Notes: generated from the letters alone by a model not told the origin. A stretch of 64,000 bases of DNA from an uncultured Fibrobacteraceae bacterium (GCA_964420395.1 CAYQTJ010000004.1:2506-66505), one strand, 5' to 3'; shown: positions 6,689-45,383, numbered from the stretch's first letter. A program made the numbers and translations.

Positions 6689-8041
6689 TCAGAGCAGGCG
6701 GGCCGCGAGGCTCGCGAGTTCGCTGCGCTCGCTCTTGGCGAGCGTGATGTGGCCGTAGATCGCCTCCTGCTTGAACCGCTCCACGACGTAGGTGAGTCCG
6801 TTGCTCGACGCGTCGAGGTAGGGATTGTCGATCTGATAGGCGTCGCCGGCGAGGATGACCTTGGAGCCGGTGCCGGCCCGGCTGACGACGGTCTTCACCT
6901 CGTGCGGCGTGAGGTTCTGGGCCTCGTCGATGATGATGAACAGCTTGGGCAGGCTCCGCCCGCGGATGTAGGTGACCGCCTCGACCTCGATCAGTCCCGC
7001 ATCGAACAGGTACTGCACCTTGCCGGCCGATTTCTCCATCTCCGGATCGACCAGGAACTGCAGGTTGTCGTAGATCGGCTCCATCCAGCTCTCGAGCTTC
7101 TCGTCCTTGGAGCCGGGCAGGTAGCCGATGTCGCGGCCGAGCGGCATGATCGGGCGCGACACCATGATCTTGCGATAGCTCTTCTCCTCGGCCACCTGGT
7201 GCAGGCCGACGGCGAGGGCGAGCAGGGTCTTGCCGGTGCCGGCCTGGCCGAGCATGGTCACGAGCTGGATGTCGGGGCGCATCAGCAGTTCGAGGGCGAA
7301 GCGCTGCTGCAGGTTCAGCGGCTGCAGGCCCCAGGGGCGCGCCGCCTCGTGCTTCAGCGGCTCGACCCGCGCCGTGTCCCGGCGATAGATCCCCAGGGCG
7401 GTGTGCTTGGCGTTGCCGGCGGCGCGCAGCAGCACTCCCTCGTTGGGCAGCAGCGGCTCGGCCGGGGCGCACGGCTCGCCGCGGTAGAAGGCGTCGACGG
7501 CGGCGTCGGGCACCTCCAGCTCGCGCCAGCCGGTGTAGAGCTCGTCGAAGTTGACCGTGCTGCGCTGCAGGTCCTCGGCGACGAGGCCGAGGGCATCGCC
7601 CTTGACGCGGGCGTTGATGTCCTTGGTGACGAAGACCACGTCGGCGCCGTGGGCTTTCAGCCAGAGGCCGGCGGCCAGGATCCGGTTGTCGGGGATGCTG
7701 CCGTCGAGGCCGCGCGGCAACTGGTCGACGTAGGTGTCGACCAGCACGAAGAGGCGCCCGCCGTGGGGCAGCGGCACCCCTTCGCGCAGGTTGCCGGCCG
7801 CGCGCAGGGCGTCGATCTGCCGGATCACCCGCCGGGCGTTGCGGCCGCGCTCGTCGTTCTCGCGCTTGAACCGGTCCAGTTCCTCGAGCACGTCCACCGT
7901 CAGGATGATGTCGCGCCGCTCGAACGCCTCGAGGGCCGTGGCGTCGTGCAGCAGGACATTGGTGTCGAGCAGGTAGCAGCGCCCGCTCAGCTTGGCGAGG
8001 CTGGCGCCGTTGGCCCGGGTGACCGACGTCGAATCGGACAT
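6689..8041 (-). CDS. PhoH-like ATPase with N-terminal PIN domain (YlaK/PhoH2-like)
   Basis: N-terminal PIN motif (CYLLDTNVLLHD...VDVLEELDRFK). C-terminal PhoH P-loop ATPase (TMLGQAGTGKTLLALA, IIIDEAQNLTPHEVKTVVSRAG). Confidence 0.85.
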   Translation of the reverse strand: MSDSTSVTRANGASLAKLSGRCYLLDTNVLLHDATALEAFERRDIILTVDVLEELDRFKRENDERGRNARRVIRQIDALRAAGNLREGVPLPHGGRLFVLVDTYVDQLPRGLDGSIPDNRILAAGLWLKAHGADVVFVTKDINARVKGDALGLVAEDLQRSTVNFDELYTGWRELEVPDAAVDAFYRGEPCAPAEPLLPNEGVLLRAAGNAKHTALGIYRRDTARVEPLKHEAARPWGLQPLNLQQRFALELLMRPDIQLVTMLGQAGTGKTLLALAVGLHQVAEEKSYRKIMVSRPIMPLGRDIGYLPGSKDEKLESWMEPIYDNLQFLVDPEMEKSAGKVQYLFDAGLIEVEAVTYIRGRSLPKLFIIIDEAQNLTPHEVKTVVSRAGTGSKVILAGDAYQIDNPYLDASSNGLTYVVERFKQEAIYGHITLAKSERSELASLAARLL

Positions 8042-8268
8042 GGTCCCTCCATGGCAGAGAGCAGCGACCGGCGTGGCCGCGCCCGTTCCGTATCGGCCGA
8101 ACGGCGGGCGGATTGAGCCGTCCGGGGACCGCCAGCCCCCGAACGGGCTCAGGCGGTGGTGGCCGGGGCCGATTCTAGTAGATTGTGCCCCTTTGCGGGA
8201 CGAGAATCCGCGCGGGCGCCGGCCTGGCGGTCGCGCGGCGCGGGGGGACAGTCAGCCGAGGAGGGATC

Positions 8269-9666
8269 ATGTCCGGGGAAGCCTCGAAGTCGGATTACAT
8301 GCGGCCGTTCGCGGACGGGGTGGTGGCGTCGCCGGAGGAGCGGTCGGCGCTGCTGGAGCGGATGCAGCGGGACGGCGTCCGGTTCCTGCGCCTGATCTTC
8401 ACCGACATCATGGGCCAGAACAAGAACGTGGAGGTTCCGGCCAGCCAGTTCGCCAAGGCGCTGCAGGGCGAGATCATGTTCGACGGCTCCTCGATCGAGG
8501 GCTTCAGCCGCATCGAGGAGTCCGACATGCTGCTGGTGCCCGATCTCACCTCCTACGCGGTCTTCCCCTTCGACGGCGACCAGGGCAAGGTGGCGCGGCT
8601 GATCTGCGACGTCTACAACGCCGACCGCACGCCGTTCGCCGGCTGTCCCCGGCTGGCCCTGCGCCGGACGTTGCAACTGTTCGCCGAACACGGGCTGGCG
8701 CCGGTGTGCGGGCCGGAGCTCGAGTTCTTCCTCTTCCAGCGCGATGCCGCCGGGGATCCGACGGTGCGCACGCACGACGCCGGCGGCTACTTCGACCTGT
8801 CGCCCGTGGACCGCGGCGAGGAGGCGCGCCGCGAGATCGTCAACGCGCTCGAGGCCATGGGCTTCGAGATCGAGGCGGCGCACCACGAGGTCGCGCCGGG
8901 GCAGCACGAGATCGACTTCAAGTACGCGGGGGCGCTCGAGACGGCCGATCGCGTCACCACGTTCCGGCTGATCGTCAAGAAGGTGGCGTTCGACTACGGC
9001 CTGCACGCCACCTTCATGCCCAAGCCGATCCGCGGCATCAACGGCTCCGGCATGCACACGCACCAGTCGCTGTTCCGCACGGCTGGCGATCACGGCAACG
9101 CCTTCTTCGATCCGGCGGCGCCGTTCCAGCTGAGCGAGATCGCCCGGCACTACATGGGCGGCATCCTGGCGCACGCGCGCGCCTTCGTGGCCATCACGAA
9201 TCCCCTGGTGAACTCGTACAAGCGGCTGATGCCGGGCTACGAGGCGCCGGTGAACGTGGCGTGGTCGGAGCACAACCGGTCGCCGCTGCTGCGCGTGCCG
9301 GCGCGGCGCGGCGTCGGCACGCGGGTCGAGGTGCGCGTGCCGGATCCGAGCTGCAACCCGTACCTGGCGTTCGCGGTGATGCTCCGCTCCGGGCTGGACG
9401 GCATGGAACGCCGGCTCGATCCGGGCCCGCCGGTGAACCAGAACATCTTCGAGATGAGCGACCGCGAGAAGCGGCGGCTGAAGATCACGCAGCTGCCGGC
9501 CAACCTCAAGGAGGCGATCGACTGCCTGCGCCGGGACGCCGTGATGCGCGAAGTGCTCGGCGAGCACATCTTCACGCACTTCCTGGAGGCCAAGGAGGCG
9601 GTCTGGGCCGACTTCAACGCGCAGGTCCACGAGTGGGAACTGGAGCGCTATCTCGCGACCTACTAG
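8269..9666 (+). CDS. glnA: glutamine synthetase type I
   Basis: 465 aa from the internal ATG, which is preceded by GAGGAGGGA. GS-I signatures are present: RFLRLIFTDIMGQ, FDGSSIEGF, VAFDYGLHATFMPKP, NRSPLLRVP, and the C-terminal ...EWELERYL. Confidence 0.9.
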   Translation: MSGEASKSDYMRPFADGVVASPEERSALLERMQRDGVRFLRLIFTDIMGQNKNVEVPASQFAKALQGEIMFDGSSIEGFSRIEESDMLLVPDLTSYAVFPFDGDQGKVARLICDVYNADRTPFAGCPRLALRRTLQLFAEHGLAPVCGPELEFFLFQRDAAGDPTVRTHDAGGYFDLSPVDRGEEARREIVNALEAMGFEIEAAHHEVAPGQHEIDFKYAGALETADRVTTFRLIVKKVAFDYGLHATFMPKPIRGINGSGMHTHQSLFRTAGDHGNAFFDPAAPFQLSEIARHYMGGILAHARAFVAITNPLVNSYKRLMPGYEAPVNVAWSEHNRSPLLRVPARRGVGTRVEVRVPDPSCNPYLAFAVMLRSGLDGMERRLDPGPPVNQNIFEMSDREKRRLKITQLPANLKEAIDCLRRDAVMREVLGEHIFTHFLEAKEAVWADFNAQVHEWELERYLATY

Positions 9667-9693: not shown

Positions 9694-10125
9694 GTGCCGC
9701 TGATCGGATTGCTGGCGGTGGCGACCGGGCTGGCCACGCAGGTGGCCAAGGTGCTCGTGTCGTCGTGGCGGCGCGGACGGCCCGACTTCTCCCTCCTGCT
9801 GGCCTCCGGCGGGATGCCGAGTTCGCACACGGCGACCGTGACCGCCCTCGCCCTGTTCGTCGGCAGCGGGTCGGGCTGGGGCGGCCCCCTCTTCTCGGTG
9901 ACGCTGGTGTTCGCGGGCTACGTGGTCTTCGAGGCGACCGGGCTGCGGCAGGAGGTGGGCAAGCAGGCCCGCGTCCTGAACGATCTGGTGGACGCGCTGA
10001 TCGCCACCCACACGCTCGATCGCGGACGCCTGCGCGAACTGACCGGCCACACCTGGGGCGAAGTGGCCGGCGGCCTGCTCTGCGGGGTCGCGGGGTGGCT
10101 TCTGGGACGGCGTTTCCTGCCGTAG
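9694..10125 (+). CDS. divergent PAP2 / acid phosphatase-vanadium haloperoxidase-related membrane protein (YuiD-like)
   Basis: 143 aa. ASGGMPSSHTATVTALA is the characteristic motif of the DUF212/divergent PAP2 family. Confidence 0.55.
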   Translation: MPLIGLLAVATGLATQVAKVLVSSWRRGRPDFSLLLASGGMPSSHTATVTALALFVGSGSGWGGPLFSVTLVFAGYVVFEATGLRQEVGKQARVLNDLVDALIATHTLDRGRLRELTGHTWGEVAGGLLCGVAGWLLGRRFLP

Positions 10126-10294: not shown

Positions 10295-11368
10295 ATGAGA
10301 ATCATCGCCCTGGCCAACCAGAAGGGCGGCTGCGGCAAGACGACGGTCGCCACCAATCTCGCCGCCGCGCTCGCCGAGTCCGGGCAGCGGGTGCTGCTGT
10401 TCGACAACGATCCGCAGGGGCACGCCACCCTCGCCAGCGGCCTGGGCGAGGGGGATTTCGCCGCCGGCGCGTACGATCTCTACCTCACCCTGGACGCGCG
10501 CGTCGAGGAGGTCCGGCGGACGGTCGCGCCGAACCTCGACCTGGTTCCGGCGGGGATCGAACTGAGCGCCGTCGAGCAGGCGCTCGCCGGCGAACCGGGT
10601 CGCGAGTGGCGCCTGCGCCGGGCGCTGGACCGTTCCTCCCTGCCCTACGATGTCGTGCTGATCGACTGCCCGCCCAGCGTCGGCCTGCTCACCTTCAACG
10701 CCCTGCTGGCCAGCGGCGAGGTGATCGTTCCGGTGGACGCGAGCGTGCAGAGCGCGCAGGCCGTGCGCAAGTTCCGCGAAACCCTGACGGTCATCGACGA
10801 GCGACGGGGCCACCAGGCCCGGCCGCGCCTGCTGCTGTCGAACCACGATCCCCGTTCGCGGTTCGCGCGCGACTTCGCGGCGGATCTCGCCCGGGACTTC
10901 GGCGACCTGCTGCTCGACACCGTGGTCCACCACACCGTGCGTCTGAAGGAGGCCGTCGCGGCCGGCCTGGCCGTGGGACGGCTCGACGCCGGCTCGCGGG
11001 GGGCGCGCGACTTCCGGAGCCTGGCGGCGGAACTGCTCGCGGCCGGCGCGGGCCTGGCCGATCCGGCGGCGTTCCCGTTGCCACCGGCGGCGGGCGGGCC
11101 GCTCCTGACCCCCGCGGGGGTGCGCTTCGCGGCGCGCTTCCCGGAGGCCCGCGCCGTGCGGGTTACCGGGTCGTTCACCGACTGGGCGGCGGAGGGGGAG
11201 CCGCTCACGGCGAAGGGTGACGGAGAGTGGGAGGCCGTGCTGCCGGTGCCGCCGGGGCGCTACGAGTACCGCTTCATCGTGGACGGCGACTGGCTGCCCG
11301 ACCCGCAGAACGCCGAGGCCGTGCCGAACGACTTCGGCGGCGTGAATTCCCTGCTGGTCGTGCCGTGA
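10295..11368 (+). CDS. ParA/Soj-type partition ATPase fused to a C-terminal CBM48 (AMPK-beta/glycogen-binding) domain
   Basis: N-terminal deviant Walker A (IALANQKGGCGKTTVATNLAAALA) and the ParA core (LLFDNDPQGHAT, VLIDCPPSVG). C-terminal ~90 aa (VRVTGSFTDWAAEGEPL..GEWEAVLPVPPGRYEYRFIVDGDWLPDP) match the CBM48/AMPK1_CBM beta-sandwich. Confidence 0.8.
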   Translation: MRIIALANQKGGCGKTTVATNLAAALAESGQRVLLFDNDPQGHATLASGLGEGDFAAGAYDLYLTLDARVEEVRRTVAPNLDLVPAGIELSAVEQALAGEPGREWRLRRALDRSSLPYDVVLIDCPPSVGLLTFNALLASGEVIVPVDASVQSAQAVRKFRETLTVIDERRGHQARPRLLLSNHDPRSRFARDFAADLARDFGDLLLDTVVHHTVRLKEAVAAGLAVGRLDAGSRGARDFRSLAAELLAAGAGLADPAAFPLPPAAGGPLLTPAGVRFAARFPEARAVRVTGSFTDWAAEGEPLTAKGDGEWEAVLPVPPGRYEYRFIVDGDWLPDPQNAEAVPNDFGGVNSLLVVP

Positions 11369-11381
11369 GATCGGGACGAAC

Positions 11382-12242
11382 GTGGCCGTCGAACTGACCC
11401 CCCGCAACCACGACATCCGCACCGTCGTCGACCACTTCCTCGAACCTGCGGTCGCCCCGGCGGGGCGCGCCCGGGGGGGGACGCGGGCCTATCGCTTCGC
11501 CGTGGCCGCCGGGGCCCACGGCTTCCTGGCCGCCTGGACCGCCGCGGGGCTCGCGCGGGCAAGCCTGCTGCTCGGCGGCAGCGGTGCCCGGCAGGCCCCG
11601 ATGCGGGTCACCCTCGAGGAGTGGCACCGGCAGGCGTGGGCCGCGGCGCCGTTCCTGGGGGGGGGCGACCGGGAGCGGCTGCGCACGCTGTTCCGCCCGG
11701 AGGCGTTCGGCCACGCGGAGGGGGACGCGCGGCGCTGGCTGGGCGGCGTGGAGGTGGTGCCGCCGCGCTTCGTCGGCCGATCCGGCGGCGGGGAGCCGGG
11801 ACCGGTCTGCGCCTGGATCAATCTGGGCGGGGTGGCGGGACGGTCGCTCGCGGCCCTCGAGGCGGCCCATGCCTGGGACGGGGGAGGTCTCTTCGACGGC
11901 GGCCTGGACGGGCTCGTGTGGTGCGTGCGCGCGGAGGAGGCGGGGGCGCTCGGCACCGCCTACGGCCTGGGCCGGCTGGCGGCGGCGCTGCGCCCGCGCC
12001 AACTGAAGCTGCTGGTCTACGCGGATGGGGCGCGGACCGGTGCCGCGCGGGACCGCTGGCGGGAACTGGCCGGGCTGGCCGCCCCCGCCGCGGCGATCGA
12101 ACTGCTCGCGGAGGCCTGCGATCCCCGGAGCGCGGCGGCGGAGGGGAGCGCCAGCCCGTTCGCCTCCCTGGCCGCCAGCCTGGCGCTCGGCGCGGAGGGG
12201 GCCAGGCGGTCGGGCGCCGCGGCGCGGGAGGCCGGCGCGTGA
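11382..12242 (+). CDS. hypothetical protein (Ala/Gly-rich), co-operonic with the ParA-CBM48 gene
   Basis: GTG start 14 nt after the parA-like stop. No family recognised. Reality of the coding call is uncertain because of GC bias. Confidence 0.35.
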   Translation: MAVELTPRNHDIRTVVDHFLEPAVAPAGRARGGTRAYRFAVAAGAHGFLAAWTAAGLARASLLLGGSGARQAPMRVTLEEWHRQAWAAAPFLGGGDRERLRTLFRPEAFGHAEGDARRWLGGVEVVPPRFVGRSGGGEPGPVCAWINLGGVAGRSLAALEAAHAWDGGGLFDGGLDGLVWCVRAEEAGALGTAYGLGRLAAALRPRQLKLLVYADGARTGAARDRWRELAGLAAPAAAIELLAEACDPRSAAAEGSASPFASLAASLALGAEGARRSGAAAREAGA

Positions 12243-12556
12243 ACGGCGAGGCGGGAGCCGTGCAGGCGGGGCTGGTCCGCGCCGGACCGCTGCGGGAGGA
12301 CTTCCGCCGCTTCCTGGAACTGCTGGGCGAGCTCGACCCCGGTGTCACGCTGCACGAGGAACCGTTCCGGATCGTGGTCCGCCTCCACGGGCGCCCGCTC
12401 TGTGACTGCCACCCTCAATCCCACGCCGTGCACGTTCGGCTTGGCCGGGAGGCGGGGGGCGAGGTACGCTGTCGCACGCATGAGGACTTTGTCGACATCC
12501 TGGCGCGGTTGCTCGGCGAGCTGCGCGGCGCGGCCCGGCCGCTGCCGCCGGTCTGA
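12239..12556 (+). CDS. small hypothetical protein (~105 aa) with a CxC...H...H motif
   Basis: GTG start overlaps the upstream stop (GTGA). The sequence ...HGRPLCDCHPQSHAVHVRLGREAGGEVRCRTHEDF suggests a possible metal-binding site. Confidence 0.3.
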   Translation: MNGEAGAVQAGLVRAGPLREDFRRFLELLGELDPGVTLHEEPFRIVVRLHGRPLCDCHPQSHAVHVRLGREAGGEVRCRTHEDFVDILARLLGELRGAARPLPPV

Positions 12557-12586: not shown

Positions 12587-13975
12587 GTGACGCGGGCGGG
12601 CGCGGCGCAATTCCTGTACGGCGGTTGCCTGCTGACCCTCCCGCTGATCGGGTGCGATCCGGTGCGCCTGGCGAGCGGGGCCGATCTGGGCGCCGGCTTC
12701 CAGCCGGCCTATCTGTTCCTGGCCGGGGCGACCCTGCTCGCCTGCGCCGCGACCGGGCGGCGGCGGCTGTGGGCCGGCTGGGCCGCGGCCCGTCCGTGGA
12801 GCACGCTCGGCCTGTGGGCCGCCGGGGCGGTGGCCGTCTCGGCGCTCGGCCTCGTGATCCGGCCTCCGGCGGGGGGGCCGGAAGCCGCGGCGCGGCTGTG
12901 GCGCCTGGGCAAGCAGTTCGGGCAGCTCCTGATCATGTTCACGTTCGTGGCCTGGCCGCTGCTCTGGACCCGGGGCAGCGCCCGCTGGGAGTGGACCCGC
13001 CGGCTGTTCGGCCTCGCCCTGCTCGGGCAACTGCTCTACGGGCTGGTGCAGGGGGCCCTGTTCGGCCACGCCTGCGCGCCGTTCGCGGCCCTGGAGCGGG
13101 TCTTCACCGCCAATCCTGCCATCCTGTCCGGCTCCGAGGAGCTGTACCTCGGCCACGGCTTCACCGGAATCCCCCGCCTGCGCGGCACCTGCTGCGAGCC
13201 GCTCTATCTCGGCAATTACCTCCTGCTGGCGCTGCCGGTGGTGCTGTTGCCGGGCGCACGGCATCGTCACCAGGCACTGGCGCTCGGCGGAGGCCTCCTG
13301 CTGCTGCTGACCTGGTCGCGCGGCGCCTGGCTGGCGGCGGGCGGCGCAGCCGTCGTCTGGGCGTTGCTGGCGGCGCGCGCGGGGCCTCGCCGGCGACCGG
13401 AGGCCGGGACGGAGTCCCCGCGGCGGTGGCTCATCGTTGCGGCGCTGTCGGGCATGGCGGTCGCGTTGCTGCTCTGGCGCCCCGACCTGGTCACGCTGCC
13501 GGCCCGACGGCTGGCGCAGTCGGTCAACCGCGAGGACTGGTCCAACCTCACGCGCCTCTACTCGATGCAGGCCGCCTGGCGCGCCTTCCTGCTGAGCCCG
13601 GTGGTGGGGGTGGGGTGGGGCCAGTTCGGCTTCCACTTCGTGGGGCTGGTCGATCCCCTCGGGCTGCAGAGCCAGTTCAGCTGGCCGGTCGTCAACTCCT
13701 ACCCGCTCCAGGTCCTCTGCGAAACGGGCCTCATCGGCTTCGCGGTCTTCGTCGGGGGGGCCGCGCTGGTGGCCCGGGCGATCGCGCGGGCGCTGGGCGG
13801 GGGAGGGGGAGTGGCGGGCGTCGAGGCCCGCCGCCGCACCGCCCTGCTCGCGGCGGCGCTCGTCGGGGTCTGGGGGCAGCTTCTGACGTTTTCCCAGTAC
13901 AACCTGCCCCACATATGGGTCGCCCTGGGGCTGCTGCTGGCGGCGACGCGGGAAGCGGAGGCGGGCCGTGGCTGA
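12587..13975 (+). CDS. O-antigen ligase/polymerase-like polytopic membrane protein (WaaL/Wzy_C family)
   Basis: About 10-12 hydrophobic helices. LTWSRGAWLAAGGAAVVWALL is the O-antigen-ligase (Wzy_C) signature. Confidence 0.65.
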   Translation: MTRAGAAQFLYGGCLLTLPLIGCDPVRLASGADLGAGFQPAYLFLAGATLLACAATGRRRLWAGWAAARPWSTLGLWAAGAVAVSALGLVIRPPAGGPEAAARLWRLGKQFGQLLIMFTFVAWPLLWTRGSARWEWTRRLFGLALLGQLLYGLVQGALFGHACAPFAALERVFTANPAILSGSEELYLGHGFTGIPRLRGTCCEPLYLGNYLLLALPVVLLPGARHRHQALALGGGLLLLLTWSRGAWLAAGGAAVVWALLAARAGPRRRPEAGTESPRRWLIVAALSGMAVALLLWRPDLVTLPARRLAQSVNREDWSNLTRLYSMQAAWRAFLLSPVVGVGWGQFGFHFVGLVDPLGLQSQFSWPVVNSYPLQVLCETGLIGFAVFVGGAALVARAIARALGGGGGVAGVEARRRTALLAAALVGVWGQLLTFSQYNLPHIWVALGLLLAATREAEAGRG

Positions 13976-15152
13976 GCGCCCCCTCGTGCTGCTGGACGCC
14001 CTGCTGGTGCAGCCGGAGCCGACCGGCGTCGGGCGGTCGATCCTGGAACTGACCCGGGCGCTGGCGGCCCGGGACCGGGGCTTCGATTTCGGGCTGCTGA
14101 CCACGCATCCGGAAGCGTTCGCGCCGCTGGAGGGGGTGCCGGGCTGGCGGGTGCTCACCTGTGCCGGCGCTCGCGGCGGCACCCTGCGCAAGGCGCTGTA
14201 CACCCAGTTCGCCCTGCCGGCGCTGGCGACGCGCCTGCGGGCGGCGGTCCTGCACAGCCTGCAGTTCGTGGCGCCACTGAGGCTGCCGTGCCGGAGCGTG
14301 GTCACCGTGCACGACCTGGCCTTCCGCCGTTTCCCGGGCACGGTGGAGGTGCCGCGGCGCTGGTACTACGAGGCCCTGGTGCCGGCGACCCTGCGGCGCG
14401 CCGGCCGGGTCGTCACGAATTCGCAGGCGACCGCGGACGACGTGGCGGCGCTGTTCCCCTCCGTCAGGGGGCGCCTGCGGGTGACCCCCTTCGGCACCCC
14501 CTCCTGGGTCTGGGAGCAGCCGGAGCGGCGGCGGGAGGGGGAGGCCGGGGGTCCGTTCCTGTTCGTGGGGACGCTCGAGCCGCGGAAGAACCTGCCGCGT
14601 ATCCTGGAGGCTTTTCGCCGGTTCCGAAACCGGGCCGAGGCCGCCGGCGGGCCGCCGCCGCCCGTTCTGAGCCTGGTGGGCGGTCGCGGCTGGGGAGATT
14701 CCCCCCTGCGGGAGCCGATCCGGGCCCTCTCGGCGCGGGGGGCGCTGCGGCTCGAGGGGTACTGCCAGCCGGCTCGTTTGTGGGAACTGTACGGCGCGGC
14801 ACGGGCGTTGCTATTTCCCTCCCTTCACGAGGGTTTCGGCTTCCCGATCCTGGAGGCGATGGCGGCCGGCCTGCCGGTCCTGACCGCCGACCGGGGGGCG
14901 ATGCGGGAGGTGGCGGGGGACGCGGCGCTGCTCGTGGATCCCGACGACGTCGAAGCGATCGCCGACGGGCTCGCCCGGCTGGACCGGGACGCCGCGCTGC
15001 GGGCGCGATTGATCGCGCGCGGCAGGGAGCGGGCGCGGGAGTGGTCGTGGGAGCGCACGGCCGCGGCCACGGTGGCGGTTTACGCGGAGTTGGTGGCGGC
15101 GCCCGGTCCCCGCGACGAAATTGCCGTTGCCGCGCCTGAGGATAGCGTTTAG
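13968..15152 (+). CDS. glycosyltransferase family 4 (GT-B, retaining)
   Basis: FVGTLEPRKNLPRILEAF... and FPSLHEGFGFPILEAMAAGLPVLTADRGAMREVAGDAALLVDPDD match the EX7E GT4 motif. Start overlaps the upstream stop. Confidence 0.85.
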   Translation: MAERPLVLLDALLVQPEPTGVGRSILELTRALAARDRGFDFGLLTTHPEAFAPLEGVPGWRVLTCAGARGGTLRKALYTQFALPALATRLRAAVLHSLQFVAPLRLPCRSVVTVHDLAFRRFPGTVEVPRRWYYEALVPATLRRAGRVVTNSQATADDVAALFPSVRGRLRVTPFGTPSWVWEQPERRREGEAGGPFLFVGTLEPRKNLPRILEAFRRFRNRAEAAGGPPPPVLSLVGGRGWGDSPLREPIRALSARGALRLEGYCQPARLWELYGAARALLFPSLHEGFGFPILEAMAAGLPVLTADRGAMREVAGDAALLVDPDDVEAIADGLARLDRDAALRARLIARGRERAREWSWERTAAATVAVYAELVAAPGPRDEIAVAAPEDSV

Positions 15153-15203
15153 CCTGCCGTAGCGACCAGCCGGCGATCGAGCCGCCAGGACAAGGAGCGC
15201 CGC

Positions 15204-16505
15204 GTGGATAGGGAGATCGTCGCGCTGTTGTGCGGACTGCTGGCGTTCAGCATGTCGTGGCTGGTGCAGCCGCACTTCCGCAACCTCGGCTTCCTCACCA
15301 AGATCGTGGACCATCCCGGCTACCGTCGCTCCCATCTGGAGCCGGTTCCGCGCACCGGCGGCATGGCCATATTCATCTCCTTCTTCTTCACCCTCTACAT
15401 CCAGGAGCGCCTCAGCCTCACGGATGCCATGCCGTGGTCGTGGCTCGGCATCCTGATCGGGGCCGGCCTGGCGATCCTGGCGCTGGGAGTGGGCGACGAT
15501 CGCTTCGGGATCCACGCGGAGAAGAAGCTCTACGGGCAGCTGCTCGTGATCGTGGGGCTGATGCTGTTCGGGCAGCGGCTCGAGGTGGTGAACCTGCCGC
15601 CGTTCGGCGAGGTGAACCTCGGCGGCTGGGCCTGGCCGGTCACCATGCTCTGGTACCTCGGCTTCATCAATTCGATGAACCTGATCGACGGGCTCGACGG
15701 ACTGGCGAGCGGCATCAGCGTGCTGGTCCTGCTCTCGCTCGGCGCGATCTCCCTGGCGGTGGGCGAATTCGTGCCGCTGGTGTGCGCGGCCACGCTGTGC
15801 GGGGCGACCGTGGCCTTCTTCTACTGGAACATCAGCCGGCGCAAGATCTTCCTCGGCGACTCCGGCAGCATGTGGATGGGGCTCGTGCTCGGCACGCTGC
15901 TGCTCGACCTGGGGCGCCGGACGAGCGTGGCGCTGCCGGTCCTGCTGGCGCCGATGGTGGTGCCGATCTGGGACACAGGAACCACGATCATCCGCCGCTG
16001 GCGCAAGCGGGCGTCGATCTTCCAGGCCGACGATTATCACCTGCACCACCGCCTGGTGCGGGTCGGCTTCTCGCCCCGCGCCGCGGTGGCGTTCCTGCTG
16101 CTGATCACCGCCGGCACCGTCCTGTTCGCGATGTCCGATTTTCTGGGCGCGCCGTGGATCGGGATGCCGGCGCTCGGTTGCTGGCTGCTCTCCCTGCACC
16201 TCGAAGCGACGCAGCACCGGCGCAACCGCGCGCTCGGCTTCGACTCGTTCACCGAAATCCTCTACATCCTCGGCTTCGACGACCGGCTCGAACTGCGCCT
16301 CGGGGCGCGGGGACGCAGGGTGGCGGAGATCGTCGACCTCCAGGCCGAGCGGCAGCGCGTGGAACGCACGCTCGCGGCGGCCGTCGGCGGCAGCGCGCCG
16401 GAGCGACTGGCGTCGCCCGCGCCGCGCCGACGCTCGACCAAGGCCGGCGCGGTGGAGGAAGCGGGCGAGGATGTCGTTCTCCCCACTACCCGCGATCTTT
16501 CTTGA
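15204..16505 (+). CDS. polyprenyl-phosphate N-acetylhexosamine-1-phosphate transferase (WecA/MraY family)
   Basis: Polytopic membrane protein. HPGYRRSHLEPVPRTGGMAIF and INSMNLIDGLDGLASGISVL are the MraY/WecA signatures. Confidence 0.85.
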   Translation: MDREIVALLCGLLAFSMSWLVQPHFRNLGFLTKIVDHPGYRRSHLEPVPRTGGMAIFISFFFTLYIQERLSLTDAMPWSWLGILIGAGLAILALGVGDDRFGIHAEKKLYGQLLVIVGLMLFGQRLEVVNLPPFGEVNLGGWAWPVTMLWYLGFINSMNLIDGLDGLASGISVLVLLSLGAISLAVGEFVPLVCAATLCGATVAFFYWNISRRKIFLGDSGSMWMGLVLGTLLLDLGRRTSVALPVLLAPMVVPIWDTGTTIIRRWRKRASIFQADDYHLHHRLVRVGFSPRAAVAFLLLITAGTVLFAMSDFLGAPWIGMPALGCWLLSLHLEATQHRRNRALGFDSFTEILYILGFDDRLELRLGARGRRVAEIVDLQAERQRVERTLAAAVGGSAPERLASPAPRRRSTKAGAVEEAGEDVVLPTTRDLS

Positions 16506-18503: not shown

Positions 18504-18753
18504 TAATAACCAGATCCGGATTCTGGGGAATCTCACCCGCTTTCCTCGGGACCCGGGCCTGCGCCAGTCAAGACAGCGGGCGCGCCGGGCGCGCCGATGA
18601 GACAGCAACCAGCGCTGGACCGGCGGGCTGGTGCCCCGGCCCATTCGCCATCCCGATCGCGCGGCATGCAGGATCCACGTCGTCTCCGGCCGGGCCGGAG
18701 GCAGCTCCCCTGCCGTAGCCCTATCGCCCACCCCCGTCGTTCGGAGGCCGCGG

Positions 18754-21700
18754 ATGAGATTGCGCCCCGCTCTCCTGGCCCTGTTCCTCTGGGTGATGCC
18801 GGCCCTCACCATCACGCTCTGTTCGAGCCCGCGGGAGGCGTGCGGCGCCGTCTCCGGTAGCGGCGCTCAGCTGCGCCAGGAGGTCACGTTCCCCCTTTCC
18901 CGCTCCGGATGGCCGGTGGCGGGGGAGGTCGGCGCCGCGCTGCTCACCGACGAACCGGGCGATCCGCGGGTGCCTTACCACGACGTCGTGCTGCTGCTCC
19001 CGCCGGGGCGGCGGGTCGCGGAGGCACGCTTCGCTCCTCGCGATCCGAGCGAGCGGGAACTGCCGGCGGCGGTGGTCACCGCGGCCCCGGCGCGGGTTTC
19101 CGCCGGGGGCGAGGTGGCCTGGGACCGGCTGCCGGCCGACGGGCCGGCGTATCCGCCGGCCTGGGGGGAACTGCTGGGCGAGACGGTCTGGCACGGCTAC
19201 CGCCTGGCCCACGTACGGCTCTACCCCTGGCAACTGACGCGGGGGGGCACGGGGACGTGGGACGGCGCACGCGCCGCAGCGGGGATGACGATCGAACTGG
19301 CGCTGGCTCCCGTGGCGGACGGCGGCGGTCGCCGGCGCCCGGCGCCGGAGCCGGACGCCGCGCTCAGGGCGCGGCTGCGGGGGCTGGTGGCGAATCCGGA
19401 CGCCGTCGCCGCCTACCCGCTGCCGGGCGTGGCGGCGGCGCGGGATGGCGCCGGCTTCTCGCCGACCTGGGCGCCGAGCCTGCTGGGCGACGATGTGGCC
19501 TACGTGATCATCACGAGCGCCGCGCTCGCGGCGGAGTTCCAGCGCCTGGCCGATTACAAGACCGCGCGGGGCGTCCCGACGGTCGTGCGCACGATCGAGG
19601 CGATCGTCGCCGCGGCGCCGGCCGGGATCGATCTGCCGGCGCAGATCCGCGCCTATTGCGCCGAGGCATACCGCGACTGGGGGACGACGGCTGTCCTGCT
19701 GGGCGGCGACACGCAGATCGTGCCGACGCGACGGATCCTCAACACGCTATATCCCGCGGGCGAGGGGACCGAGATGCCCGTGGACCTCTACTTCGCCTGC
19801 CTGGACGGGGACTGGAACGCCGACCACGACGAGAAGCTCGGCGAAGCCTACATGAATCCCTACGATTCGGGTGACTGGGCCGATCTGGCGGCCGAACTGG
19901 CGGTCGGGCGGGCGCCGGTCGCCACGGCGGCGGAGGCCGCCGTGTTCGTGGACAAGGTCATGGCCTACGAGGGGGGAACCGTCGCCGCGCCGGCTGGCCG
20001 CGCCCTCTTCCTGAGCGAAGTGCTCTTCCCGAGCGCCTGGACCGTCGGCACCCCCATCACCGACGACGGCGCGACGTACAGCGAGGCGATCATCAACGAA
20101 GTCATGGCGGAGTCGCCCATGCCCCCGGCGGCGACGCGGATGTACGAGGCGACCGCGCTCTGGCCCGGCTCGGTCCCCGAGCGGCGCCTCGCGGTGATCG
20201 ACTCGCTCAACACCGGGCACTTCGGGCTGGTCAACCACATCGGCCACGGTTTCTTCTACAACCTGTCCGTGGGCGATGCGACGCTCGATCTGAAGGATGC
20301 CGCCGGGGTCCACAACGACCCGAGCTACTTCATCCTGAACAGCCTCAACTGCTCCTCGTCCGCCTTCGACTACAACAGCATCCTCGAGCGGCTGGTGCTG
20401 AATCCGGGAGGCGGCGCCGTGGCCACGATCGGCTCGGCGCGCGCCGCCTTCCCGACCACCGCCAGCCAGTACCAGCGGGAGTTCTACGCCGCGCTGTTCC
20501 GCGACGGGATCCGGGAGGTGGGCGCAGCGGTGGCGGCCTGCCGCCTGCCTTTCCAGGGGCTGACCGCCGGGAACACGCCGGAGCGCTGGACGCACATGAC
20601 CCTGACGCTGCTCGGCGATCCGACGCTGGCGGTCTGGACCGCGCCGCCGGTGCCTCTCGTGGTCAGCGCGCCGGACACCCTGCCGCTCGGCGGGCAGGAG
20701 GTCGTCGTGAAGGTGACCCGCGGCGGGCTGGCCGTGGCGGGGGCCATGGTCTGCCTGCTCAAGACGGGCGAGTGCTACGCGCGCGGCTACACCGATGCGG
20801 GCGGGGAGGCCCGCCTGCCGGTCGTGGTGAAGTCGGCGGGGGCCGTCGCGCTGAGCGTGACGGCGGCCGACTCGCGCCCCGCGACGCGGACCCTGCCGGT
20901 GAGCGTCGCGCCGAGCCCGTACCTGAAGGTGACCTCGGTCCAGTTCCGGGATGACGGCACGCTCGGCTCGGTCGGCAACGGCGACGGCCTGCCGGATGCC
21001 GGCGAAACGGTGGCGTTGCTGCCGACCTTCACGAACAGCGGGACGGTCCTGGCCACCGGCGCGGTCTCGATGTCGGCATGGACCCTGACCCCGGGGGCGA
21101 CGCTGCTGTCGACCGCGACCGCCGTGCCGCCGCTGGCGCCCGGCGCGTCCGCGGTCGGCGGGAGCCCGCTGCTGCTGCGTCTCGAGGCCGGCGTGCCGGA
21201 CGGCACCCTGTTCACGGTGCAACTGGCCGCCATCGACGGCGGGCGGGTCTACTTGGACGAGATCTCCGAGCGGGGACGCGCGCCCGACCTGCGGCCGACG
21301 ATCATGACGTGGAGCGACTCGCCCGGGGGGGACGGCGACGGCGTGATCGAGCCCGACGAGGAGATCGTGCTGCGCGTGACGCTCCTGAATCCAGGCGGCG
21401 GGCGGGCCTCCGGCCTGACGGCCACCGTCGAGCCGGGAATCGGACTGACGGTGGTGGATGGCAGCGGCGCCTGGCCCGACATCGCGCCGGGGGGCGAGGC
21501 GACTCCGTCCGACGCGGTGAGCGTGCGCCCCGCCTCGCCGGTGTCGGCCGCCCGCGGCACGCTGGTCGTGCAGGACGCCTTCGGACACGAGTGGCGCCAG
21601 CGCTTCGACCTCACGCCGCCCGAACGGCCGACGGGAGTGACCGGCACCTCGCCCGCCGGCGGGGAGTGCCTCCTGCTCTGGACGCCGAACCCGGAGGCGG

Positions 21701-23562
21701 ACCTCTACGGGTATCACGTCTACCGGTCGCTGCAGCCGAATTACGGCTACGTGCGGCTCACCGCGGAACCGGTCACGGGCGGGAGCTTCTACCGCGACAC
21801 CGGACTCGCCGCGCTCACCCGGTACTACTATCAGATCGCCGCCGCCGACTCGTCGCGGCTGCTGAGCCGCGTCACCTCGACGCTCGGCGTCAGCACGGTG
21901 CCGTCGGAGCAGACCGGCTTCCCGATCGAGCTGCCCGCGGAGACGTCGAGCCATCCGGTCGTCGGAGACGTCAACGGCGACGGCCGGCTCGACGTGGTGC
22001 TGCCGGCCAATTACATCTACGTGTGGGACGCGGATGGGGTGGAACTGCGGAACGGCGACGGCGACAGCCAGACGCTCGGCCCCTTCAACTCCACGGCCGC
22101 CGACTGGGCGCCGGCCGGTGCCACGCTGGCCAACCTGACCAGCCGTCCGGGGCTGGAGATCATCGCCTCGAATCGCACCGCGCGGCAGATCTTCGTCTAC
22201 CAGGGGGACGGCACGGTGGCCGCGGGCTGGCCGCGCACGATGAGCGACTGGAACTGGGCGACGCCGGTGGCGGGGGATCTCGACGGGGACGGCGACCTGG
22301 AGGTCATCGCGAACACCGTCACGGGGACGCTCTACGTCTGGCACCACGACGGCACGGACTTCTTCGACGGCGACGCCAACCCCGCCACGGTCGGGGTGTT
22401 CCAGGTGCGCGTCAACGAGTGGTACAGCTTCTGCTCGCCGGCGCTCGCCGACCTCGACCAGGACGGGAAGCTGGAGATCATCCTCGGCACCCGCTACAGC
22501 GGCACGACGCCGGACGTGCTGATGGCGCTGCGCAACGACGGCACGAACCTGCCCGGCTTCCCGGTCAGCTTCGGCCTCTACGGCGAGACGCTCTGCAGCC
22601 CGGCCGTGGGCGATCTCGACCTGGACGGGCGGCTGGAGATCGTGGTGGTCACCGAGAACGATCGCCTGCAGGTCATCCGGCACACCGGGCTGTCGATGGC
22701 GCCGTTCCCGATCCTCTTCGTCTCCAACAACAACCCCGACGGGCTGAGCACCCCGTCGCCGGCGCTCGCCGACCTCGACGGCGACGGCTATCCGGAGATC
22801 GTGGCGGTGTCGGTCACCGACGCGCTGACCGCCGCGGTGCACGCGGTCAGGCGGACCGGCGTCAACCTGTCCGGCTGGCCGCGGGCGGTGGGGGGGAATT
22901 CGGAATCGTCGCCGGTGGTGGCGGACATCAGCGGCGACGGGCATCCGGACGTCCTGTTCGGCATCGGCGGCGGGGCCGACAGCAGCCCCAACGCGCTCTA
23001 CGCGTGGCGCCACGACGGCGGCGTGGTGCCGGGATTCCCGCTGCAGCTCAGCGGGCCGATCCGCCCGACCCCCTGCCTGACGGACCTGAACCAGGACGGG
23101 GACATCGACCTCGTCTACGGCGGCTGGGACCTGCAGATGCACGTCTGGGACCTGCCGGCGGCCTGGAATCCCGACCTGGCGTTCTGGCCCACCTTCAAGG
23201 GCAATCCGCTGCGCAGCGGCCTGGCCGGCCAGCTGTGGATCACCGCCGTGCCCGGGGGGGAGGACGGCGCCCCGCCGGCGGCGGTCGCGCTCGAGGGGAA
23301 TCGGCCCAACCCGTTCAATCCGCGCACGCGGATCACCTTCGCCCTGCCCGGCCCCGGCGCGGTCCGGGCCCGGCTGACCATCTACGACCTGCGGGGGCGG
23401 CGCGTGGCGCAGCTGGTGGACGGCTCCCTGCGGCCCGGGCGCCACACCGTCGACTGGTACGGGCGCGACGACGGGGGCGGGGCGGTCGCCAGCGGGGTCT
23501 ATCTCTGCCGGCTGACGGCCGGCGGGGTGGTGACGGAGCGCAAGATGACCCTGGTGCGGTGA
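18754..23562 (+). CDS. giant secreted multidomain protein: gingipain-like cysteine peptidase (C25) + FN3-like module + ~8 FG-GAP repeats + T9SS-type C-terminal sorting domain
   Basis: Signal peptide (MRLRPALLALFLWVMPALTITLC). C25 region (YVIITSAALAAEFQRLADYKTARGVPTVV..; LLGGDTQIVPTRRI; catalytic-type HIGHG and SLNCSSSAFD). FN3-like segment (GYHVYRS...YYYQIAAADSS). Repeated D-x-[DN]-x-D-G-x-x-[DE] FG-GAP units (DVNGDGRLDVV, GDLDGDGDLEVI, ADLDQDGKLEII, GDLDLDGRLEIV, ADLDGDGYPEIV, ADISGDGHPDVL, TDLNQDGDIDLV). C-terminal NRPNPFNPRTRITFALP...VYLCRLTAGGVVTERKMTLVR tail. Confidence 0.85.
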   Translation: MRLRPALLALFLWVMPALTITLCSSPREACGAVSGSGAQLRQEVTFPLSRSGWPVAGEVGAALLTDEPGDPRVPYHDVVLLLPPGRRVAEARFAPRDPSERELPAAVVTAAPARVSAGGEVAWDRLPADGPAYPPAWGELLGETVWHGYRLAHVRLYPWQLTRGGTGTWDGARAAAGMTIELALAPVADGGGRRRPAPEPDAALRARLRGLVANPDAVAAYPLPGVAAARDGAGFSPTWAPSLLGDDVAYVIITSAALAAEFQRLADYKTARGVPTVVRTIEAIVAAAPAGIDLPAQIRAYCAEAYRDWGTTAVLLGGDTQIVPTRRILNTLYPAGEGTEMPVDLYFACLDGDWNADHDEKLGEAYMNPYDSGDWADLAAELAVGRAPVATAAEAAVFVDKVMAYEGGTVAAPAGRALFLSEVLFPSAWTVGTPITDDGATYSEAIINEVMAESPMPPAATRMYEATALWPGSVPERRLAVIDSLNTGHFGLVNHIGHGFFYNLSVGDATLDLKDAAGVHNDPSYFILNSLNCSSSAFDYNSILERLVLNPGGGAVATIGSARAAFPTTASQYQREFYAALFRDGIREVGAAVAACRLPFQGLTAGNTPERWTHMTLTLLGDPTLAVWTAPPVPLVVSAPDTLPLGGQEVVVKVTRGGLAVAGAMVCLLKTGECYARGYTDAGGEARLPVVVKSAGAVALSVTAADSRPATRTLPVSVAPSPYLKVTSVQFRDDGTLGSVGNGDGLPDAGETVALLPTFTNSGTVLATGAVSMSAWTLTPGATLLSTATAVPPLAPGASAVGGSPLLLRLEAGVPDGTLFTVQLAAIDGGRVYLDEISERGRAPDLRPTIMTWSDSPGGDGDGVIEPDEEIVLRVTLLNPGGGRASGLTATVEPGIGLTVVDGSGAWPDIAPGGEATPSDAVSVRPASPVSAARGTLVVQDAFGHEWRQRFDLTPPERPTGVTGTSPAGGECLLLWTPNPEADLYGYHVYRSLQPNYGYVRLTAEPVTGGSFYRDTGLAALTRYYYQIAAADSSRLLSRVTSTLGVSTVPSEQTGFPIELPAETSSHPVVGDVNGDGRLDVVLPANYIYVWDADGVELRNGDGDSQTLGPFNSTAADWAPAGATLANLTSRPGLEIIASNRTARQIFVYQGDGTVAAGWPRTMSDWNWATPVAGDLDGDGDLEVIANTVTGTLYVWHHDGTDFFDGDANPATVGVFQVRVNEWYSFCSPALADLDQDGKLEIILGTRYSGTTPDVLMALRNDGTNLPGFPVSFGLYGETLCSPAVGDLDLDGRLEIVVVTENDRLQVIRHTGLSMAPFPILFVSNNNPDGLSTPSPALADLDGDGYPEIVAVSVTDALTAAVHAVRRTGVNLSGWPRAVGGNSESSPVVADISGDGHPDVLFGIGGGADSSPNALYAWRHDGGVVPGFPLQLSGPIRPTPCLTDLNQDGDIDLVYGGWDLQMHVWDLPAAWNPDLAFWPTFKGNPLRSGLAGQLWITAVPGGEDGAPPAAVALEGNRPNPFNPRTRITFALPGPGAVRARLTIYDLRGRRVAQLVDGSLRPGRHTVDWYGRDDGGGAVASGVYLCRLTAGGVVTERKMTLVR

Positions 23563-23609: not shown

Positions 23610-23853
23610 GGACGAAGTCACACCGGAGTGGGGCGCCGTCGGCGCCGCCGCTCCGCTACCACCTCCCGGAGGGCTGGACGACCGCACCTGGGTAACGGGC
23701 AGCAGTGGCGGGCCGGCAGGGCCGGCCCCGCATTGGCAGCAGCGTTCACAGTCCCCCGAGGAGGCATCCGTTTCCTCACGCAGAAGTCGATGAAGACACG
23801 TGCTTCTCGCGGCTCCGGCCGCGAGTTACGTCGCTATTGACCGGAGGGTATGC

Positions 23854-39413: not shown

Positions 39414-39430
39414 AGCGGCGGGGAGGTCAC

Positions 39431-40552: not shown

Positions 40553-40553
40553 G

Positions 40554-41660: not shown

Positions 41661-42259
41661 GCCTGTGGCTGCCGGAGGGGTGCCCCGAGGCGGACGCCCG
41701 GAAGGACCGGACGGACGGTGGCGCCCTGTTCGTCGACCGCGACGGCGTGGTCATCGCGGACGCCGACTACCCGGCGGATCCGTCCGCCGTCCGGCTGCTG
41801 CCGGGCGCGGCGGCGGCCCTCGCGCGCGCCCGCGCCGCCGGCTACCTGGTGATCGGGGTGTCCAACCAGTCCGGCATCGGACGCGGTTACTACGGCGAGG
41901 CGGATTTCGCGGCGGTGCAGCGGCGCGTCGATGCGCAACTCGCCGCCGCCGGCGCCGGACTGGACGCGCTCTATTACTGTCCGCACGCCCCGGCGCAGGA
42001 CTGCCGCTGCCGCAAGCCGCGGCCCGGCCTGCTGGAGGAGGCGGCGACGCGCTTCCGGTGGCGCGCCGACCGCTCCTGGCTGGTGGGCGACAAGCTGACG
42101 GACGCGGAACTGGCGCGGGCGGCGGGGCTGCGTCCCGTTCTGGTGCTGACCGGCAAGGCGGAGGCGCGGTCCGCCGGCCTCCCGCCCGACGGGGCGGTGC
42201 TGGTGGTGGCGGATCTGGCGGAGGCGGTCTCCCGCCTCCTGAGCGGGGAGCGGGCGTGA
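41657..42259 (+). CDS. gmhB: D-glycero-D-manno-heptose-1,7-bisphosphate phosphatase (HAD-IIIA, GmhB)
   Basis: ATG overlaps the upstream stop (ATGA). ALFVDRDGVV (HAD motif I), IGVSNQSGIGRGYY (motif II), and the GmhB zinc-finger cysteines (CPHAPAQDCRCRKP). Confidence 0.8.
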   Translation: MSLWLPEGCPEADARKDRTDGGALFVDRDGVVIADADYPADPSAVRLLPGAAAALARARAAGYLVIGVSNQSGIGRGYYGEADFAAVQRRVDAQLAAAGAGLDALYYCPHAPAQDCRCRKPRPGLLEEAATRFRWRADRSWLVGDKLTDAELARAAGLRPVLVLTGKAEARSAGLPPDGAVLVVADLAEAVSRLLSGERA

Positions 42260-45361: not shown

Positions 45362-45383
45362 GGCGGGGCCCGGGGAGGGATCC

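Follow-up and report, generated by a model that had tools for sequence, protein, structure and literature searches.

A ParA-type ATPase fused to a CBM48 module in an uncultured Fibrobacteraceae bacterium: a candidate positioning system for glycogen granules

ATPases of the ParA/MinD group are a general bacterial means of placing things in the cell without a cytoskeletal motor, and their known cargos are DNA, carboxysomes, chemoreceptor arrays, flagella and division proteins. To our knowledge, how glycogen, the commonest carbon store, is distributed in bacterial cells is essentially unknown. Here we describe a gene in which a ParA-type ATPase is joined to a C-terminal carbohydrate-binding module of family 48 (hereafter ParA-CBM48), together with the two small open reading frames (ORFs) that follow it, orf286 and orf105. 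The locus lies in a stretch of 64,000 nt from an uncultured Fibrobacteraceae bacterium (GCA_964420395.1 CAYQTJ010000004.1:2506-66505; GC content ~74%), which is called the window throughout; coordinates are collected in Table 1.

The closest described relatives of the ATPase belong to chromosomal ParA/Soj-ParB systems (e.g., those of M. xanthus, 8RAY, and T. thermophilus, 1WCV), with which it shares the deviant Walker A core (E-values of 1e-34 to 1e-38) and a basic VR/KLK/REA segment at the Soj R189 region; unlike them, it has a C-terminal CBM48, a cysteine in its KGGCGKT motif and DPQGH instead of DPQGN. The likeness extends to the partner, whose unstructured N-terminal peptide combines hydrophobic residues with a central basic residue (LGRGL...) as in ParB (PMC12462528). 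By contrast with ParABS, however, the window has neither a ParB/Srx CTPase nor parS, and the partner is either MinD/ParA-like (mostly degenerate) or built on another domain. McdA/McdB, PpfA, ParC and PomZ offer a second parallel, as two-gene systems in which a ParA-type ATPase stands beside a fast-evolving, low-complexity partner and the presumed cargo is not DNA and is distributed over the nucleoid (PMC11407121). There, it is the partner that recognises the cargo, whereas in ParA-CBM48 a cargo-binding module is fused covalently to the ATPase, and the presumed cargo is a storage polysaccharide, for which the reviewed literature holds no such ParA system.

The module itself resembles the CBM of AMPK-beta (4Y0G, 1Z0M) and the CBM48 of SEX4/LSF, in that the same Pfam families are found above threshold and the contact residues correspond, but it sits on a P-loop positioning ATPase and not on a kinase scaffold or phosphatase. 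Among SIMIBI proteins (FlhG/FlhF, MinD/MinE), the partner found in other phyla is MinD/FlhG-like and has an N-terminal regulatory peptide. FlhG activates FlhF through its N-terminus. Here, the target would be ParA and not the GTPase FlhF, the Krumholzibacteria partner has probably lost its P-loop, and there is no flagellar or divisome context. A parallel in concept is PhaM, which ties a carbon-storage granule (polyhydroxybutyrate) to the nucleoid and lets it be shared at division; it has no sequence relationship to ParA-CBM48 and no ATPase domain. A literature search for ParA with CBM48, AMPK1_CBM or glycogen found no relevant paper, and the words glycogen, carbohydrate and granule are absent from a 2024 review of ParA/MinD cargos (PMC11407121).

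A Soj-like ATPase with a C-terminal CBM48 module

A first-pass annotation, made from the window sequence alone, had described an intact ParA/Soj core carrying a CBM48/AMPK-beta domain at its C-terminus, and profile searches recovered both halves. Specifically, the ATPase matched Pfam AAA_31 (residues 1-170, 148.8 bits against a cut-off of 27, E 2e-43) and CbiA (best stretch 4-225, 66.5 bits against 25.4, E 2.8e-18), while the C-terminus matched AMPK1_CBM (PF16561; residues 285-356, 48.2 bits against 26.8) and CBM_48 (PF02922; best stretch 275-331, 31.3 bits against 22.4), i.e., all four models passed their curated thresholds. An AlphaFold2 model (mean predicted local distance difference test score, pLDDT, 86.7) consists of an alpha/beta domain (1-250), a disordered segment (253-266) and an all-beta sandwich (270-356; pLDDT ~90). 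An artefact in which two frameshifted genes are read as one is excluded by hundreds of full-length homologues and by the reading frame itself: because a single frame keeps the GC content at third codon positions (GC3) at 0.90-0.94 from the ATPase across the linker to the CBM, there is no frameshift in the gene. The N-terminus of the protein is strand beta-1 of the ATPase itself and leaves no room for a signal peptide; ParA-CBM48 is therefore expected to be cytoplasmic. The ligand of the CBM must then also be cytoplasmic, which for an alpha-glucan would mean glycogen or maltodextrin. An exact look-up of the window protein returned no record.

The fusion is widely conserved. A search for close homologues returned 2,393 matches at E <= 1e-10, and the best 120 of these were all full-length fusions of 356-406 aa (115 of them 356-358 aa) with 57-100% identity, 100% query cover and a PF16561 match; their named sources were Candidatus Krumholzibacteria, the rest being labelled simply 'bacterium'. 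We also searched representatives of clusters at 50% identity exhaustively (1,618 matches at E <= 1e-30) and read the architecture of the best 150. In 129 of these, an ATPase was followed by exactly one CBM at the extreme C-terminus (median of 3 residues beyond it), across a linker of 7-359 aa (median 49). Finally, scanning species-representative genomes with the patterns NQKGGCGK and L[LI][VIL]DxDPQ[GA]H gave at least 600 stretches, at least 593 of which encode a ParA-CBM48 relative. The CBM was verified among the best 80 of these loci, all of which matched through residue 343-357 and all of which come from metagenome-assembled genomes (MAGs). Their labels span more than 10 phyla overall, including Krumholzibacteriota, Eisenbacteria, Zixiibacteriota, Omnitrophota, Planctomycetota (Phycisphaerae, Pirellulales), Myxococcota, Desulfobacterota, Acidobacteriota, Rokuibacteriota and Margulisiibacteriota. 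ParA-CBM48 is thus a large family in many uncultured bacterial phyla; that the members found are all from uncultured lineages may explain why it has been overlooked.

Residue conservation was read from an alignment of 49 diverse family members, 33-66% identical to the window protein. Within the ATPase, K10, G11, G12, G14, K15, T16, D37, D39 and D124 were invariant, and with both the signature lysine K10 and K15 present the motif has the deviant Walker A form KGGxxGK[ST] of ParA/MinD. Two further positions set the family apart: C13 (window 10331-10333) and H43 (10421-10423, in DPQGH) were each present in 48 of the 49 members, where Soj proteins presumably have valine and asparagine, and a KGGCGKT Walker A occurred in 119 of the 129 fusion representatives. 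At the putative equivalent of the Soj R189 region, positions 216 and 218 were R or K in 39 and 44 members, respectively. The best sequence matches in the PDB were ParA 8ray (2.6e-38), 4pfs (8.9e-37) and T. thermophilus Soj 1wcv (4.4e-34), and in the AlphaFold2 model the protein ends in the CBM, without an amphipathic membrane helix of the MinD type. The ATPase is predicted from these conserved residues to be a catalytically intact, Soj-like ParA.

No curated NCBIfam model reached its cut-off with ParA-CBM48, ParA_partition included (120.7 against 180). Several more specific identities accordingly found no support: BcsQ (TIGR03371, 96.9 against 157.85; no bcs genes among the neighbours), a bacterial tyrosine kinase (BY-kinase; TIGR01007, 38.9 against 108; the C-terminus is a CBM without a tyrosine cluster), and MinD, MipZ, RepA and SopA, whose scores were all under the cut-offs.

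Among solved structures, the CBMs of AMPK-beta are nearest to the C-terminal module (E 2.6e-10 for the alignment to AMPK beta-2, 4y0g). The residues that we take to be the sugar contacts of AMPK beta, namely W100, K126, W133, L146 and N150, correspond to W297, R326, W333, F347 and N351, and these positions are conserved across the family: W in 49/49, K/R in 48/49, W in 48/49, a hydrophobic residue in 37/49 (F, Y, L and I are among the six commonest) and N/D in 45/49, respectively. The nearest CBM matches outside ParA proteins were tandem-CBM48 proteins, several of which have GH13 alpha-amylase or pullulanase domains. With the AMPK-beta contact residues kept, the CBM looks ligand-competent for alpha-glucan. 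Separately, three proteins (P0121, of 1812 aa, P0190 and P0204) consist almost wholly of tandem CBM48/AMPK1_CBM repeats, with 16 Pfam stretches in P0121; no catalytic domain was detected in them, and they could be glycogen- or starch-binding scaffolds.

The downstream genes and a recurrent N-terminal peptide

The gene orf286 begins 13 nt past the ParA-CBM48 stop, and its product is rich in alanine (23%) and glycine (15%). As the first-pass annotation had it, the two small downstream ORFs are joined by a GTGA overlap, and both have coding-type GC3 values (0.93 for orf286 and 0.86 for orf105). Its statement that no parB-like gene follows is borne out as well: no Pfam or NCBIfam model, including ParB/Srx and helix-turn-helix (HTH) models, matched either product, a motif scan of the window found no GLGRGL-type ParB N-terminus and no second KGGxGK gene, and no parS site with up to 3 mismatches was present in the 64 kb.

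A homologue of orf286 (249-290 aa) lies directly 3' of the fusion throughout Krumholzibacteria. Where the ATPases were 82, 66, 59 and 60% identical, these homologues were 76, 47, 31 and 29% identical, i.e., orf286 evolves much faster than the ATPase. An N-terminal peptide of the type R-x-H-H-I-x-x-V-x-H-F-L is always kept; R8, H10, I12, F19 and L20 are invariant among the Krumholzibacteria homologues, and the peptide aligns with a motif found in other phyla. Reading the ORF directly 3' of the fusion in all 87 loci (individual loci are given L numbers), we found a recurrent N-terminal peptide with the consensus LGRGLxDVSHLFLS, e.g., KLGRGLSDVSHIFLSG (L021), RLGRGLADVSHVFLSG (L080), KRGLEEISHLFLSS (L033), RNLREISHFFLSE (L067) and RKRQHIRSIGHYFLSG (L077). 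The typical N-terminal sequence of ParB is LGRGLxALL.

We searched the 11,634 six-frame segments of the loci with profiles of this peptide. A first profile, built from 20 peptides, gave 24 matches at E <= 1e-3, every one of them on the plus strand and 5-376 nt after the ParA-CBM48 stop, with 4 of the 24 in loci that had not contributed to the seed. A second profile, to which the Krumholzibacteria variant had been added, gave 29 matches at E <= 1e-2, all of them between -4 and +173 nt of the stop. Significant matches in the fetched loci thus occurred only at the start of the gene directly downstream of ParA-CBM48. ParA is known to be activated by an N-terminal peptide of its partner in which hydrophobic residues surround a central Arg/Lys, and a ParB-type N-terminal motif alone suffices to stimulate it (PMC12462528; reviewed in PMC11407121). 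The product of orf286, whose N-terminus bears a diverged version of the peptide, is, by this sequence evidence, likely to be the cognate partner of ParA-CBM48.

The bodies behind the peptide differ between loci: MinD/ParA-type P-loop domains that pass the CbiA or ParA Pfam thresholds (L080, L021, L024), HTH with RodZ_C (L074), AAA_22 (L037) and a domain family without a Pfam match (L059, L048, L038). For orf286, profile comparisons pointed to the first of these. In hhalign, the Krumholzibacteria partners including orf286 (group K) matched group M1 (L077/L026) with 89-91% probability (E 1e-6 to 2e-6) over 83 columns spanning the peptide, strand beta-1 and the next helix, at a score of 51.1 against at most 15.1 in 30 column shuffles of M1; M1 in turn matched the MinD-like partners (group C) at 95%, and group C matched the ParA core at 97.5%. 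The joint alignment places RFAVAAGAHGFLAAWTAAGLA over LIAITSGKGVRGKTLVAFGLA and LVWCVRAEEAG over the Walker B strand, and the P-loop lysines are absent from orf286, which has 'AAGAHGFLAAW' opposite 'SGKGVRGKTLV'. A homologue search with orf286 gave 11 close matches, hence a shallow alignment and a low-confidence AlphaFold2 model (pLDDT 55, predicted template modelling score 0.61) with an alternating beta/alpha pattern. The best Foldseek match of this model was the MinD-like ATPase FlhG (4rz2; E 1e-2, TM score 0.41-0.45), and there was no match at E <= 1e-3. We consider these data suggestive: orf286 probably combines the partner peptide with a degenerate MinD/ParA-like domain that lacks a P-loop.

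The first-pass annotation had also proposed that the downstream ORFs could be the adaptor and had drawn attention to the cysteines and histidines of orf105. The first idea survives for orf286, insofar as it is the likely partner, with the peptide at the start of the fusion-adjacent gene, but an ATPase regulator is a more likely role for it than a glycan adaptor. For orf105 it finds no support: the 3 Cys and 6 His are there, but the pattern is not kept (just C78 and H81 persist in a 49%-identical homologue), and homologues occur only in L004 (90%), L005/L006 (49%) and L007, i.e., in relatives whose ParA is at least 66% identical. A conserved adaptor or metal-binding role for orf105 was therefore rejected.

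No similarity was found between orf105 and either the 228-aa ORF of L003 or the third-gene families of other phyla. In more distant Krumholzibacteria, namely L003 (9821-10507), L012, L013, L009 and L010, the slot between the partner gene and Wzy_C holds an unrelated, membrane-anchored protein of ~120-230 aa that is hydrophobic near its N-terminus and ends in a transmembrane helix with a basic tail. A third gene family (~150-250 aa) lies ~0.2-1.2 kb 3' of the fusion in L020, L024, L038, L049, L059, L061, L062, L067, L075, L076 and L082. It has no Pfam match, hhalign relates its two sub-clusters with 98% probability, and by eye its motif 'GEIDLLAVD...LxIID' looks PD-(D/E)xK-like. A direct fusion of this domain to the LGRGLxDVSHLFLS peptide occurs in L059, L048 and L038.

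Possible function and rival explanations

The reading that we prefer, with confidence a little short of even, is that ParA-CBM48 and orf286 would form a two-gene positioning module of the ParA/MinD type for glycogen granules, in which the ATPase has its own cargo-binding domain. The first-pass annotation had suggested much the same, i.e., a positioning ATPase tethered through its CBM to glycogen or alpha-glucan granules, and this idea, supported in part, is the best available hypothesis. Under such a scheme, ATP-bound ParA-CBM48 dimers would sit on the nucleoid as Soj does, and the two CBM48 modules of each dimer would hold cytoplasmic glycogen. The ParB-like N-terminal peptide of orf286 would dock on the ParA dimer and bring about ATP hydrolysis and release, and repeated binding and release could keep granules tethered, distribute them over the nucleoid and apportion them to both daughter cells. 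The broader claim, that this is a multi-phylum and previously unrecognised ParA/MinD system dedicated to glycogen granules, with a paralogous MinD/ParA-like and often pseudo-ATPase activator that acquired a ParB-like peptide, seems to us possible but doubtful.

Were that broader claim true, ParA-CBM48 would be the first example of an ATPase that positions a storage polysaccharide, and also the first of a ParA whose motor is fused to its cargo-binding domain. It is a concrete, testable candidate for glycogen distribution, present across many phyla, and a natural experiment on the ParA mechanism, given that the motor is covalently tied to its presumed cargo. It also presents a short, portable peptide that marks partners ranging from intact MinD-like ATPases to degenerate pseudo-ATPases.

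Some loci contain alpha-glucan-related genes near the fusion. In 11 low-GC Omnitrophota-type loci, which carry the labels Omnitrophota, Planctomycetales or Thermodesulfobacteriota-free MAGs, the fusion is preceded on its own strand by a gene for a glycoside hydrolase of family 57 (GH57; PF03065, E 8e-63) of the intracellular type, without a signal peptide; in L024 (Thermodesulfobacteriota), a branching-enzyme-like GH57 gene is found close by on the opposite strand. In one published Krumholzibacteriota MAG, starch/glycogen hydrolases are the most abundant glycoside hydrolases (PMC10936416).

Several points weigh against our reading. Beyond the low-GC Omnitrophota-type group and L024 we saw no consistent glycogen neighbour, and no glycogen gene turned up in the window when it was scanned for glgA, glgP and GH57 motifs. 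The envelope-glycan genes that do lie beside the fusion leave room for other readings, and the partner bodies, diverse as they are (MinD-like, HTH + RodZ_C, AAA_22, a domain without a Pfam match, a bitopic membrane protein), are in no case glycogen-related. A ParA fixed permanently to its cargo does not fit the classical Brownian ratchet, in which it is the partner that rides on the cargo, and the case for DNA binding by ParA-CBM48 comes from two conserved basic positions only. The same CBM module is regulatory in AMPK. Lastly, the suggestive MinD-like assignment of orf286 comes from profile links that are transitive and from a model of low confidence; when group K was compared directly with group C and with ParA, hhalign gave no significant result, nor did an HMMER search.

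That the CBM48 is a sensor, reporting glycogen or malto-oligosaccharide status and tuning the ATPase cycle as in AMPK while the partner defines the cargo (a MinD-like assembly, a membrane complex or DNA), is in our view unlikely. The diverse, glycogen-unrelated partner bodies and the proximity of the module to AMPK-beta CBMs speak for it, as does the fact that classical ParA systems move cargo via the partner (PMC11407121), but the long, disordered linker, variable in length between 7 and 359 aa, is more in keeping with a tether than with an allosteric module that packs against the ATPase. We regard as improbable a BcsQ-like organiser of polysaccharide synthesis or export, in which the CBM would grip the nascent glucan and the ATPase would direct the placement or gating of the co-directional Wzy_C, GT4 and WecA-like enzymes or, in the low-GC Omnitrophota-type loci, serve the Alginate_exp porin and GH57 cluster. 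The strict synteny with Wzy_C, GT4 and Glycos_transf_4 across Krumholzibacteriia, the Alginate_exp porin and membrane proteins flanking the fusion in the low-GC loci, and the sub-threshold matches to BcsQ models speak for such a role. Envelope-glycan genes are, however, absent beside the fusion in the other phyla, the BcsQ score falls well under its cut-off (see above), and no glucan synthase is nearby. CBM48 modules moreover bind alpha-glucans, and these are not expected products of Wzy-type pathways.

Two further explanations are, in our judgement, very unlikely. The protein might be a Soj for chromosome or plasmid partition with an accessory domain, orf286 replacing ParB and the job still being DNA segregation; its best solved relatives are indeed chromosomal ParA/Soj, the partner peptide resembles the ParB N-terminus, and some partners carry an HTH (L074). 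Against this stand the missing ParB/Srx or HTH domain in orf286, the lack of parS in the 64 kb and the ParA_partition score given above, and DNA segregation gives no reason for the retention of glucan-binding residues. Myxococcota and Planctomycetota, both of which have ParA-CBM48, are also expected to have canonical ParAB. Just as improbable is a C-terminal beta-sandwich that merely resembles CBM48 and binds protein, in a system unrelated to carbohydrate. Many bacterial CBM48-like domains are uncharacterised, and the AMPK CBM also makes protein contacts; nevertheless, a family whose members are only 33-66% identical retains the two stacking tryptophans of the AMPK-beta sugar site together with its Lys/Arg and its Asn, both CBM models pass their curated thresholds, and the nearest relatives are amylase and pullulanase CBMs.

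Genomic surroundings

Table 1 Features of the ParA-CBM48 locus and its neighbours, in window coordinates
Feature	Position	Strand	Basis
ParA-CBM48 gene, 357 aa + stop (ATPase, flexible linker, C-terminal CBM)	10295..11368	+	Pfam, GC3, homologues, AlphaFold2
Soj-like ParA/MinD ATPase domain, aa 1-250 (Walker A K10-T17, Walker A' D37/D39, Walker B D124)	10295..11044	+	AAA_31, PDB matches
Deviant Walker A KGGCGKTT	10322..10345	+	Motif; Cys is a family signature
Ala/Pro-rich disordered linker, aa 253-266	11051..11092	+	Sole segment with pLDDT <50
CBM48/AMPK-beta beta-sandwich, aa 270-356 (W297, R326, W333, F347, N351)	11102..11362	+	PF16561, PF02922, 4y0g alignment
orf286 (286 aa), likely cognate partner/ATPase regulator: ParB-like N-terminal peptide and probable degenerate MinD/ParA-like alpha/beta domain without P-loop	11382..12242	+	
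Partner peptide R8-N-H-D-I-R-T-V-V-D-H-F-L20, Krumholzibacteria variant of LGRGLxDVSHLFLS	11403..11441	+	Alignment, motif profiles
orf105 (105 aa), small clade-specific ORF, GTGA overlap with orf286	12239..12556	+	GC3 0.86; few homologues
DUF212 (YuiD-like) membrane protein, conserved upstream neighbour in Krumholzibacteriota	9694..10125	+	Synteny; context only
Wzy_C, GT4 and WecA-like (Glycos_transf_4) genes, co-directional	12587..16505	+	Labels from relatives; context only

The Pfam labels of the window neighbours (Wzy_C, GT4, Glycos_transf_4, PIN/PhoH and glutamine synthetase) were transferred from syntenic relatives. In Krumholzibacteria the gene order is DUF212, ParA-CBM48, the 249-290 aa protein, an optional small ORF, Wzy_C, GT4, Glycos_transf_4, a methyltransferase, a gene without assignment and a giant Peptidase_C25 gene; Wzy_C, GT4 and the WecA-like gene accompany the fusion in the class Krumholzibacteriia alone. 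The DUF212 neighbour cluster was present in 16 loci, including the distant L015, L026 and L077. Upstream in the window lie a PIN + PhoH ATPase gene (6689-8041, minus strand) and a glutamine synthetase gene (8185-9666, plus strand), an arrangement that is kept in the closer Krumholzibacteria relatives L004 and L005; these surroundings indicate an ordinary core chromosome and not a mobile element. Scans of the window for promoters, terminators and repeats returned nothing informative in this 74% GC DNA.

In the low-GC Omnitrophota-type loci, ParA-CBM48 is preceded by an Alginate_exp porin, GH57 and a 191-aa bitopic membrane protein, in that order, and followed by a DUF4870-like membrane protein and then by a Lys-rich protein weakly similar to EF-Tu domain 2. 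The Alginate_exp-GH57 neighbourhood was seen in L017, L019, L028-L031, L041-L044, L050, L053, L054, L060 and L063. The standard partner peptide is absent from these low-GC loci; the cytoplasmic N-terminus of the bitopic protein, DEIYDHLAKVYLGK, is loosely similar to it. Phosphoglucomutase occurs at a median of ~4.5 kb from the fusion in five loci, the one Pfam-checked case being from Myxococcota. Elsewhere, a gene for a MerR-family regulator lies directly upstream of the fusion in L049, L062, L076 and L079 (Myxococcota-labelled loci, one Thiogranum and the unclassified MAG L076); the MerR cluster comprises 6 loci, and its Pfam label (MerR_1, E 1e-13) comes from the L076 representative only.

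Further downstream in the window, positions 18631-23562 and 23800-28725 encode tandem paralogues of ~1,640 aa, each with Peptidase_C25, FG-GAP and a C-terminal FlgD_ig; a gene of the Peptidase_C25 type likewise ends the conserved gene string in L001, L003 and L005. The region 39400-45400 has a GC content of ~78% and long ORFs that overlap on both strands, for most of which GC3 names no winner. Within it, only the ORF at 40434-41660 (plus strand, GC3 0.93) is clearly coding-looking, and by eye it resembles glycosyltransferase family 9.

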